Part shown: positions 3,963 through 6,976 of the stretch, one piece after another | Position numbering within the stretch: position 1 is the stretch's first letter | Layout: each line of letters opens with the position of its first letter | Source: Escherichia phage ECO103 4-12-1 | Reading direction: 5' to 3' (one strand) | Sequence record: OR844651 | Length of the DNA: 59,406 bases | Translations under genes and position numbers: made by a program | The notes under the pieces: model-generated | Seen by the model: the letters and a program-made list of their open reading frames with translations, nothing else | Database searches by the model: none | Told to the model about the DNA's origin: nothing

Positions 3963-4982
3963 TTATCGAGTGATGATGCCGAATTGCAAAGATTCGACGT
4001 TGTTCTGGTTCCAGTCACTTCCGCCCGGCGCTTGCTCGAACGATGCCTGATAATACTTGTACGACTCGGTGAGCGGCACCTGAATTTCAGTCGGCGTACC
4101 GCCTTCCGTGTTGACCACCAGACCGAGTTTACGATCATCAAGGTCGCCTTTACGGGCGTACGCGATAACAGATACGGCGAAGATCTGGTTATTGTTCGGC
4201 AGCGTCACGTTCGAACGGTACATATCCGTGGCCCCTGCGGTGTTCGATTGCAGGTAGGGCTTCGACTCGCCGCCCGGGGAAAGCTGTGACACGATCTGAT
4301 AGTGCGGCGTGGCAGACGAGGCGTTCACGACTTCCCACTGCGTAGAAACGTCGGCCGTTGGCATACGGCTGGTCACTTCGACCGGAGTCAGGCGCGCGTT
4401 GTTGCGGCTACCGGAACCATCGATCACGTAGAAATCGTCCAGTGTCTGTTCGCCCGCATTAGGTGCGGTACCCGTCTGCCCCCAAACGATTGTGTACGTG
4501 GTGGTCGGCGCACTCGATGGCGTAACCGTTAACTGCAATTCGTTATTCGCGTAGACCTTGACGGTGTTGGCCGCCTTATCGATCTCGATTTCGAAGTAGT
4601 ACCATGCGTTCAGGATCAGCGGGTTCACGCCCAACTCTTCCCCTACGCGGATTTTCCCGGTCGTGGTGTCCCACTCGATGTCCACGATGTTCTCGATACG
4701 CGCGATACGCATACGGGACAGCCCGGCTTTCATGGCAAATCCGAAGACGACTGACGAGGCCGTCGTGGTGAATCCCCATGACAGGGAGGCGTTGACGGAC
4801 GAACTGGCGGCCACGGTGAATTTCAGCGCGCGCGCACCAGTCCGGCGTCCCTCGACAACGGAAAAGGTGGTATCACTGGCGTTACGCACCACGTACCCGG
4901 CGGCTTCCAGATAGCCTTGTAGGGCCGTACCCTTCACGCCGATTTCGGCATAGTGGTCGTACCCGTCACAGAATTTAAACAT
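3963..4982 (-). CDS. tail-associated protein, paralogue 3 of a tandem triplet
   Basis: 339 aa; shares MxKFxDGYD N-terminus, WYYxE and DDFxxID motifs with 4996..5958 and 5969..6976. Confidence 0.5.
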   Translation of the reverse strand: MFKFCDGYDHYAEIGVKGTALQGYLEAAGYVVRNASDTTFSVVEGRRTGARALKFTVAASSSVNASLSWGFTTTASSVVFGFAMKAGLSRMRIARIENIVDIEWDTTTGKIRVGEELGVNPLILNAWYYFEIEIDKAANTVKVYANNELQLTVTPSSAPTTTYTIVWGQTGTAPNAGEQTLDDFYVIDGSGSRNNARLTPVEVTSRMPTADVSTQWEVVNASSATPHYQIVSQLSPGGESKPYLQSNTAGATDMYRSNVTLPNNNQIFAVSVIAYARKGDLDDRKLGLVVNTEGGTPTEIQVPLTESYKYYQASFEQAPGGSDWNQNNVESLQFGIITR

Positions 4983-4995
4983 TTCGGTATGCTCC

Positions 4996-5958
4996 TTATG
5001 GTCTTACGGCAACGCCGAACGGCGCTTCGCTGAGTCGTTCATCATTCCAGTCCAGTCCGGCCGGATTCGTCTCAAACACAGCATAACTATACTTTTCAGT
5101 CGTGGATAGCGCCGCGTCGATAACTTCTTTTTGCGTGCTGCCTTTTTGCCCCATGACCATACCTAACTGACGGTTGTCCACGTCAGACTTTTTGTTCAGT
5201 ACGGTCATGCCGACGGCCAGAATGTTTTGCGTGTCAGGGATGACGGTGTTTGATAAAAACGTGTCCATCGCGCCGGACGTGTTCGACTGGATGTACGACC
5301 CTTCGACTGGCGGCTGGTTATAGACGAGCGGGTAGTGGTCAGTGCCGGACGACGGCGACCACTCTTTGTCCACGTCCACCATCGGCAGGCGGCTGGTGAT
5401 CTGGATAGGCCCGATGCGCCCGGTATACTTGCCCGGCTGATTGTCGATGAACTGGAAGTCGTCGAGGAGGTATTGCGCCGTGGCAACGCCCGCCCATGTG
5501 ACTTCGTAGTTAGTGACCGGGTTCGCACTCGATGGCGACGGCGCAGTGATGTCCAGCCCGTTGTTCACGTACACCTCGATCGTGCTGGTGGTCTTGTCCA
5601 GTACCACTTCGATGTAGTACCACAAGTCCAGCAGCAGCACCGCCGTTCCGGTACCGCCCGCCGCCGAGATTTTCCCGTCAGTCTCGTTCCACGTAACCGT
5701 CGCCACGTCCTTGATGGTGACGAGCGTGTGACGTTTCCCGATCGCGCGGAAGGCAAAGCCAAACACGACCTTCGTGGCCCCGGAGGTGAACACGCGTTTC
5801 AGGCTGGCCGCGTCCGGCAGCGATACCGCCATCTGCGTAGCCACGCGCCCTTCCTCCAGCGTGGGCGTACCTGTCACGGTATACCCGCACTTGGTCAGCC
5901 CGTCTGTAACGTCAGACCAGCCGCGTAGCTGGTCAAATCCGTCCATAAATTTCAGCAT
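4996..5958 (-). CDS. tail-associated protein, paralogue 2 of a tandem triplet
   Basis: 320 aa; same motif set as neighbours. Confidence 0.5.
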   Translation of the reverse strand: MLKFMDGFDQLRGWSDVTDGLTKCGYTVTGTPTLEEGRVATQMAVSLPDAASLKRVFTSGATKVVFGFAFRAIGKRHTLVTIKDVATVTWNETDGKISAAGGTGTAVLLLDLWYYIEVVLDKTTSTIEVYVNNGLDITAPSPSSANPVTNYEVTWAGVATAQYLLDDFQFIDNQPGKYTGRIGPIQITSRLPMVDVDKEWSPSSGTDHYPLVYNQPPVEGSYIQSNTSGAMDTFLSNTVIPDTQNILAVGMTVLNKKSDVDNRQLGMVMGQKGSTQKEVIDAALSTTEKYSYAVFETNPAGLDWNDERLSEAPFGVAVRP

Positions 5959-5968
5959 AGTAACCCCT

Positions 5969-6976
5969 TTAAATTACTGAACGCACACCGAATTCGGCGG
6001 CTTCAATGGCGGCTCGATCATAACCGCTTGTGGTGAATTGCGCGTAACGATATTCCCAATTACGGCCGATATTCGACAGGGTAACGGTGTGACTGTCAAT
6101 GTTCGCGATAATCGACACCGGGTCGGCAGTGGCCTTCCGGACTAAGGCGATCAGTCCCTGCGCCAGAATGGCCCCGTTATCCGGCAGTTTCGCCGTCGAG
6201 ATAAACGAGTCATGGCGGTCATTCGTGCCAGTATAGATAAACAGATTTGCCAAGTCAGGCGGAAGACGGCCGACCATCTGGTTATGTGCAGCCGTCGGGT
6301 TAGGCCCGGCCACGCCCCATTCGGTGTCGCGGTCGCCGTCCGGCAGTCGTCCGCTAATCTGGATGGCCCCTAAACGGCCGCCGTCCTGCGCATACATGTC
6401 GTCGAATACTTTCGTGTCTTCCTTGTAGTTCGCATCGGCAGGGAACGCCGGGAGCATGTCGAACGGGTTGAAGACCATGCGCACAACGGCCGACGCCGCG
6501 AGGACGTCCGGCAGGGTGAAGGCCACGTCGGATTTACCGTTAACGAATACCTCAATAACTTTCGTCGCGCGGTTCATCACGACTTCGTAGTAATACCAGC
6601 GCGTCGGGATCGGCGTGACATACCCGACCTCCAGTTGGTCTTCGCCCGTCTGGATGGTGACGAGCGCCGACACCGGGTCGGTGTACACCACGACATGCGG
6701 AACATCGCGGCCAGTGGCGTCACCGACCTTTAGCCCAAATAGCGCGCCACGCGCCTGCTGCTTGCACGCGAAGCCGATGGTAAGGGTGTCGCCGCCCCAC
6801 GTCCAGTCGCGCTCGTAGGCGCTGTTCAGCGTGTACAGGCCGATGCTCGTCGGGAGGCGGCCAAGACCTGCCGAAATCGCGCCTCGAACCGTGTACCCGG
6901 CGAGCCGCATAAAGGTTCCCGGGTTAGACGTGTCCGTCGAACGGAACTGCTCATACCCATCAAAATAACTTGCCAT
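5969..6976 (-). CDS. tail-associated protein, paralogue 1 of a tandem triplet
   Basis: 335 aa; same motif set as neighbours. Confidence 0.5.
   Translation of the reverse strand: MASYFDGYEQFRSTDTSNPGTFMRLAGYTVRGAISAGLGRLPTSIGLYTLNSAYERDWTWGGDTLTIGFACKQQARGALFGLKVGDATGRDVPHVVVYTDPVSALVTIQTGEDQLEVGYVTPIPTRWYYYEVVMNRATKVIEVFVNGKSDVAFTLPDVLAASAVVRMVFNPFDMLPAFPADANYKEDTKVFDDMYAQDGGRLGAIQISGRLPDGDRDTEWGVAGPNPTAAHNQMVGRLPPDLANLFIYTGTNDRHDSFISTAKLPDNGAILAQGLIALVRKATADPVSIIANIDSHTVTLSNIGRNWEYRYAQFTTSGYDRAAIEAAEFGVRSVI

Follow-up and report, generated by a model that had tools for sequence, protein, structure and literature searches.

Three paralogous genes in the distal-tail cassette

The DNA stretch analysed here (the window: 59,406 nucleotides of Escherichia phage ECO103 4-12-1, sequence record OR844651) was identified by megablast as that of a Chi-like Salmonella siphophage (Chivirus, Casjensviridae), and the phage is Chi-like and flagellum-dependent. 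Its distal-tail cassette, bordered by the gene of a J-like tip protein on one side and by the lysis genes on the other, contains three consecutive minus-strand genes that are the subject of this work, with products designated A (5969-6976; 335 amino acids, 36.5 kDa), B (4996-5958; 320 amino acids, 34.7 kDa) and C (3963-4982; 339 amino acids, 36.8 kDa). By synteny with RefSeq records, these correspond respectively to CHI_32, CHI_33 and CHI_34 of phage Chi and to YSD1_31, YSD1_32 and YSD1_33 of YSD1, which were deposited as hypothetical proteins, a few records giving the name "carbohydrate-binding protein". A Shine-Dalgarno-like sequence precedes each gene, the intergenic gaps measure 9-14 nt, and the trio is co-transcribed with the distal-tail genes.

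Pairwise BLASTP alignments ran end to end, with 36% identity between C and B (E 4e-66), 29% between B and A (E 3e-25) and 24% between C and A (E 1e-20), meaning that the three proteins are homologous and do not merely have short motifs in common. All three also matched positions 1-334 of the 335 in the profile of PHROG 2448, a group of "unknown function" (E 3.4e-121 for A, 4.8e-136 for B and 8.3e-138 for C). A first-pass annotation made from the nucleotide sequence had proposed three consecutive paralogous open reading frames at exactly these coordinates, and the pairwise alignments upheld this, with similarity extending well past the motifs and over the full length. The motifs on which it relied (MxKFxDGYD, WYYxE(V/I) and DDFxxID) are exact in B and C, but looser in A (MASYFDGYE, WYYYEV and FDDMYAQD). 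The trio was correctly placed in the distal tail downstream of the J-like gene, although not immediately so, as a 246-amino-acid DUF2793 protein is encoded in between (6986-7726). Nor is three the total number of copies, since a degenerate fourth paralog, encoding a 408-amino-acid protein (2722-3948), comes after the trio.

The left 12 kb of the window hold, all on the minus strand, open reading frames for the J-like, DUF2793, A, B, C, 408-amino-acid and 709-amino-acid proteins and for an Rz-like spanin. The J-like tail-tip (hub) protein (7726-11616; 1296 amino acids; CHI_30/YSD1_29) carries a Pfam Phage-tail_3 match and aligns over its full length with chain A of PDB entry 8vjh, the "Minor tail protein" of phage Chi. 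The DUF2793 protein (CHI_31/YSD1_30) matches its Pfam family with E 2.3e-22 and PHROG 7049, "tail fiber protein". Beyond the degenerate copy (CHI_35/YSD1_34; PHROG 2448, E 1.1e-7), the repeat-containing 709-amino-acid protein (583-2712; CHI_36/YSD1_35; PHROG 7226) is encoded by the last cassette gene before the lysis genes. The order of the tail cassette is the same in the window, Chi and YSD1. Over the compared tail-gene region of ~10.4 kb, the Chi record JX094499 is 92.5% identical to the window, and the nearest full record is that of ER24 (99%).

Some features of the public records deserve mention in their own right. Records matching positions 2722-7726 include clearly spurious product names ("histone-lysine N-methyltransferase", "u-spanin", "short transient receptor potential channel 6" and "vascular endothelial growth factor receptor 1"), and Chi-like sequence occurs in records, mostly short contigs, that bear the names of Staphylococcus, Enterococcus or Listeria phages; contamination or mislabelling is the probable cause.

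Age, constraint and the fourth copy

Erwinia phage pEp_SNUABM_08, Serratia phage JS26, Cronobacter phage JC01 and a metagenomic relative served for comparison with the window. Over five Casjensviridae lineages (Chivirus, Gwanakrovirus, Dunedinvirus, Jacunavirus and the metagenomic relative), the three paralogs fell into separate monophyletic clades, one each for A, B and C, and the A-B-C order was constant in all five. Identity across lineages within a clade was 48-66% for C, 37-54% for B and 26-39% for A, C being the most conserved and A the fastest-diverging copy across genera. Three copies were present in nearly all Casjensviridae records of the phage collection (478 places in 171 records). 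Separate clades that span genera imply that the duplications are older than these genera; the paralogs are ancient, and each has been maintained individually. In the metagenomic relative (L003, 2418-12941), it was also observed that the J-like gene is in three open reading frames of 488, 639 and 812 amino acids, and that the paralog at the B position measures 635 amino acids, comprising ~69 residues that match the profile start, ~270 extra residues and a near-complete copy (profile positions 26-327).

The trio is also under strong constraint. For A, B and C, identity to phage Chi (NC_025442) amounts to 98-99% at the protein level and 94-97% at the DNA level, with ratios of non-synonymous to synonymous substitution rates (dN/dS) of 0.03-0.05 (0.034 for A and 0.043 for C), which indicates that they are real and strongly constrained genes. 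These ratios lie below those of the J-like, 408-amino-acid and 709-amino-acid genes, the trio and the DUF2793 gene being the most conserved part of the cassette. Even in phages whose isolation hosts were Klebsiella aerogenes and Serratia marcescens, protein B retains 95-96% identity. The two domains of the trio proteins (see below) diverge at similar rates, and nothing in their comparison pointed to a conserved N-terminal anchor combined with a variable C-terminal head.

These results bear directly on a version of the initial proposal in which a recent local triplication gave receptor-binding modules, redundant or alternative, through which host range is diversified. Such a scenario would accommodate the tandem arrangement and the common motifs, and tandem duplicates of the family occur also in unrelated phages. 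An "in situ triplication" understood as a recent local event is nevertheless contradicted by the distribution of A, B and C in their own clades over five lineages and in fixed order. The idea of interchangeable, fast-evolving modules is in turn at odds with the near identity to Chi, the low dN/dS values, the lack of a variable head and the conservation of B across host genera, while the neighbouring 408-amino-acid gene retains just 80% identity. In the comparison with Chi, the trio did not display the elevated variability or mosaicism, typically C-terminal, expected of receptor-binding proteins. We consider this scenario very improbable, and both the tree and the selection analysis led us to reject recent duplication.

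Variability is found instead in the two genes downstream. The 408-amino-acid protein is a paralog of the trio over residues ~180-405, its last ~225 residues, as judged from BLASTP against C (E 7e-5), hhalign (E 1.7e-4) and the family hidden Markov model (HMM; E 4.3e-5). In other Casjensviridae genera, one of two genes of ~380 codons at this position scores better with the family HMM (E 1e-9 to 1e-11). The gene is 80% identical to its Chi counterpart in amino acids and 73% in nucleotides, with flanking genes at 92-97% in DNA, and by sequence comparison it is a recombination or mosaic hot spot of the cassette. In several Chi-like phages (e.g., FSL SP-030 and SEP13) the megablast match begins only at the 3' end of this gene. 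The 709-amino-acid protein presents six [YF]PD motifs spaced exactly 25 residues apart (538-663) within a repeat block at ~516-670, with a consensus of roughly xVxQVLxHxxxxxxYPDxxxPxS. A lag of 25 gave the top autocorrelation score, and peaks at lags of 25, 50, 75 and 100 suggest further degenerate repeats upstream. The protein might adopt the shape of an extended, slender solenoid or fibre. Its homolog in Achromobacter phage AchV4 is AchV4_0028, annotated as "hypothetical protein" and not listed among the virion proteins in Table 1 of the AchV4 study (PMC7996906). The 408-amino-acid and 709-amino-acid genes, not the trio, are the variable and probably host-range-relevant genes of the cassette, a distinction of importance for host-range engineering of Chi-like phages.

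Fold, virion evidence and possible role

A structure model of B, the copy chosen for this purpose, was produced with AlphaFold2 from a 43-sequence alignment, and reached a mean predicted local distance difference test (pLDDT) of 95.5 and a predicted template modelling score (pTM) of 0.92. A, B and C are each a soluble, acidic protein of ~35 kDa, with a predicted N-terminal jelly roll of the concanavalin A (ConA)-like lectin type followed by a predicted C-terminal sandwich resembling carbohydrate-binding modules (CBMs). The two-sheet jelly roll of the B model superposes on known members of the ConA-like lectin/glucanase superfamily, and the closest solved fold matches of both domains are overwhelmingly sugar-binding modules, the best-scoring ones being non-catalytic lectin domains. 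The fold search retrieved no solved chain matching both domains together. Independently, the family profile aligned its WYY...N strand pair with NTNHA (E 1.9e-4), indicating that the motifs first noticed in the sequence correspond to core strands of the lectin fold. This lectin-like domain of NTNHA was the only hit of the family profile in the PDB sequence searches, in which A, C and the 408-amino-acid and DUF2793 proteins gave chance-level or marginal matches. In Pfam, B alone matched Laminin_G_3 (PF13385), below the gathering threshold (14.1 versus 27.6 bits; E 0.054), with no match for A or C. The combination of a lectin-type domain and a CBM-like sandwich would fit a binding role.

The proteins might alternatively be regarded as glycan-degrading enzymes, namely depolymerases of the glycoside hydrolase family 16 (GH16) or polysaccharide-lyase type, rather than binders. 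The GH16 catalytic motif (ExDxxE, searched as E-x-D-x(x)-E) is however absent from A, B, C and the 408-amino-acid protein, for which reason the GH16-type enzyme was rejected. Pfam and NCBIfam scans likewise detected no glycoside hydrolase or lyase family in these proteins, and the lectins that head the fold matches are non-catalytic, all of which makes enzymatic activity barely credible.

The family to which the trio belongs turned out to be very large. A profile search of 1.84 billion cluster representatives returned 16,815 clusters (50% identity) at E ≤ 1e-3 and 1,222 at E ≤ 1e-30, with no family model above threshold in Pfam or NCBIfam. Contig look-ups with exact proteins placed relatives in diverse tail modules: as a lone copy following the tape-measure or Dit position (L005, Sphingomonas phage Kimi), as two tandem copies (L012), as one clear and one weak copy in Brevundimonas phage Delta, and, in Caulobacter phage phiCbK (gp103; L015, 8746-9834) and its relatives, as a single copy that closes the tail module ahead of the lysis cassette. 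Beyond these Brevundimonas and Sphingomonas phages, members occur in the Burkholderia jumbo phage BcepSauron, in a 595-kb uncultured phage (three places) and in Tetraselmis virus records.

The evidence on virion incorporation is mixed, the support for it coming from the Achromobacter phage AchV4 homologs. Liquid chromatography-tandem mass spectrometry (LC-MS/MS) of purified AchV4 virions detected AchV4_0025 (22 peptides, 75% coverage) and AchV4_0026 (14 peptides, 35.5% coverage), which were described by the authors as structural proteins without known relatives (PMC7996906). Both are recognized by the family HMM, with E 1.4e-104 and 1.9e-34, respectively. Through this homology, it is partly shown that the trio proteins are incorporated into virions, where they would act as low-copy accessory tail-tip proteins.

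Chi is the model flagellotropic phage, and there is continuing debate about what its tail tip recognizes on the cell body. In Salmonella, AcrABZ-TolC has been implicated. An Escherichia coli tolC knockout is still susceptible to Chi; mutations in lipopolysaccharide (LPS) genes arose in E. coli under Chi selection, which we count in favour of a link to LPS (PMC12248049). Within this setting, the explanation that we favour, tentatively and at a little under an even chance, is that A, B and C are non-redundant accessory tail-tip proteins of lectin type that bind a conserved surface glycan once the phage has travelled along the flagellum. The three proteins would sit at the tip periphery, surrounding the DUF2793 fibres as well as the flexible C-terminal portion of the J-like protein, and would serve as adhesins for a conserved envelope glycan such as the LPS core or the enterobacterial common antigen, by which the tip would be held and oriented on the cell surface when flagellar travel is over. 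The fixed order, the separate clades and the strong purifying selection suggest that each copy would have its own non-redundant position or ligand, and the near identity of B in phages of different host genera was taken as an indication that the ligand is conserved.

Four observations weigh against this explanation. First, the residues invariant in the family (E117, N132, D166 and D167, in B numbering) lie mostly in core motifs of the lectin fold and hence do not mark a ligand site. Second, the LC-MS/MS list of pEp_SNUABM_08, with 12 proteins including the J-like and DUF2793 proteins, does not contain gp31-33 (PMC8310351), which are the orthologs of A, B and C. Third, phiCbK gp103 lacks the "virion-associated" note borne by its neighbours. 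Fourth, sequence searches matched A, B and C to no chain of the deposited Chi tail-tip structures; according to passages in papers citing that work, the distal Chi tip is too flexible to be resolved by cryo-electron microscopy.

The last three observations would also be expected if the proteins were non-virion, lectin-like assembly factors or chaperones for the fibres encoded nearby, acting in the infected cell and then discarded, and calnexin and calreticulin do appear among the fold matches, though as a generic fold resemblance. The peptide counts of AchV4_0025 and AchV4_0026 in virions are however comparable to those of other tip proteins, and three diverged chaperones in constant order would be unusual. 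Known tail-fibre chaperones are, moreover, much smaller and usually encoded after the fibre gene. Measured against the small size and absence from virions that characterize such chaperones, the trio stands apart, with 35-37 kDa and with homologs in AchV4 virions, the latter being indirect for the phage studied here. An assembly role is in our view quite improbable.

A purely architectural role has to be taken more seriously, even if we regard it as unlikely. In this case, A, B, C and the degenerate fourth copy would act as connectors or adaptors in a hetero-oligomeric complex of the distal tail and link the J-like C-terminus and the DUF2793 fibres to the 408-amino-acid and 709-amino-acid proteins, the lectin fold being used for protein contacts without any glycan. 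Very high conservation and a fixed order are what interlocking subunits would present, and such extreme conservation suits adhesins equally well. The similar evolutionary rates of the two domains, with no variable head, the location of the variable genes just downstream rather than in the trio, and the presence of homologs in the AchV4 virion are all compatible with structural linkers. What speaks against this role is the overwhelmingly sugar-binding nature of the closest fold matches of both domains, together with the occurrence of single family copies in quite different tail contexts of other phages, which argues against one fixed set of partners.

If glycan-binding adhesins are indeed what the trio encodes, the implications may reach further. 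The trio and its degenerate fourth copy might constitute the device, long sought, by which flagellotropic Chi-like phages recognize the cell surface, with three non-equivalent lectin-type adhesins engaging conserved envelope glycans after flagellar delivery, and PHROG 2448, with at least 16,800 clusters, might represent a major, so far overlooked class of free-standing tail proteins that bind glycans, in siphophages, jumbo phages and others. This extended proposal is doubtful at present. Whatever its outcome, three "hypothetical proteins" become defined and confidently modelled two-domain candidates of lectin type that are old, non-redundant and constrained, and attention is drawn to a very large family of tail proteins that has no curated model.

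Comparison with known systems

The genes themselves are present in public records and were already grouped by PHROGs: PHROG 2448 includes CHI_32-34 and YSD1_31-33, and A, B and C are members of it with no difference. Accessory carbohydrate-binding tail-tip proteins are likewise known as a kind. In the literature searched by locus tag, no paper naming CHI_32-34 or YSD1_31-33 was found. What is added here is the domain architecture, the ancient ordered paralogy with its fourth copy, the selection pattern, the family size and the tie to published virion proteomics.

The AchV4 tail cassette (vB_AchrS_AchV4, Casjensviridae) resembles that of the window in that the family genes come after the J-like gene and after a short fibre gene that is a homolog of the DUF2793 gene (BLASTP E 5e-10), and are themselves followed by a degenerate copy and the homolog of the 709-amino-acid protein. 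It differs in that identities are 22-37%, no clear A-type copy is present, and the paralogs do not correspond one-to-one with A, B and C.

The core of the tip can be related to better characterized systems. Residues 1-763 of the J-like protein match the baseplate hub of JBD30 (E 1.5e-139), and residues 43-112 of the DUF2793 protein weakly match PDB 8gtc chain S (E 0.0027), in the knob region of the roseophage R4C tail fibre; together, these matches place the tip core in the RcGTA/R4C/JBD30 type. The 8gtc chain S is titled "Ribonuclease III" in the PDB, though it is the tripod tail fibre of R4C. Papers differ on the gene for the long Chi fibre: YSD1_29 is the J-like protein of 1296 amino acids according to the record annotation and the PIN1/PIN2 paper, while Esteves et al. 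2023 presented CHI_31, the DUF2793 protein, as the putative fibre. In R4C, three fibre trimers dock on the hub as a tripod. Given the resemblance to the R4C fibre, the J-like hub may carry three short trimeric fibres made of CHI_31-type proteins, and the DUF2793 protein of the window is probably, from its sequence, a short trimeric fibre of this sort docking on the J-like protein. As a separate observation, the proline-rich C-terminal tail of the latter contains a 9-nt tandem repeat in 5.6 copies (7865-7914; PPTEPPDRPDPSEPGTTDPSEPTKPDEPEDPQPP...), which encodes a low-complexity linker just before the C-terminus.

With the receptor-binding proteins and fibres of JBD30 (gp54) and of the R4C tripod, the Chi-like cassette has in common a homologous J-like hub, a knob resemblance in the DUF2793 protein and a gene position downstream of the hub. 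A, B and C, in contrast, match none of the JBD30 or R4C chains and are predicted to be two-domain globular proteins, not trimeric fibres.

Regarding the individual domains, the first has the fold of the ConA-like lectin/glucanase superfamily, which includes Laminin_G_3, the lectin domains of sialidase, ERGIC-53 and legumes and the HCN domain of botulinum NTNHA, with sequence scores that stay below threshold; unlike these, the lectin domain of the trio is predicted to be fused to a second sandwich within a free-standing phage protein. The second domain was compared with galactose-binding-like beta-sandwich CBMs (CBM6/15/27/32/35 type), and in the B model it is predicted to be a CBM-like sandwich. 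Among phage tails, a close known system is that of the accessory carbohydrate-binding modules in siphophage tail tips, such as the CBM2 found in the "evolved" Dit of Lactobacillus phage J-1 (PDB 5ly8). J-1-type modules are insertions in Dit or Tal of phages with Gram-positive hosts, whereas in the Chi-like phages the putative modules are encoded by separate genes that form an ordered set of paralogs, in association with a lambda/RcGTA-like tip and Gram-negative hosts.

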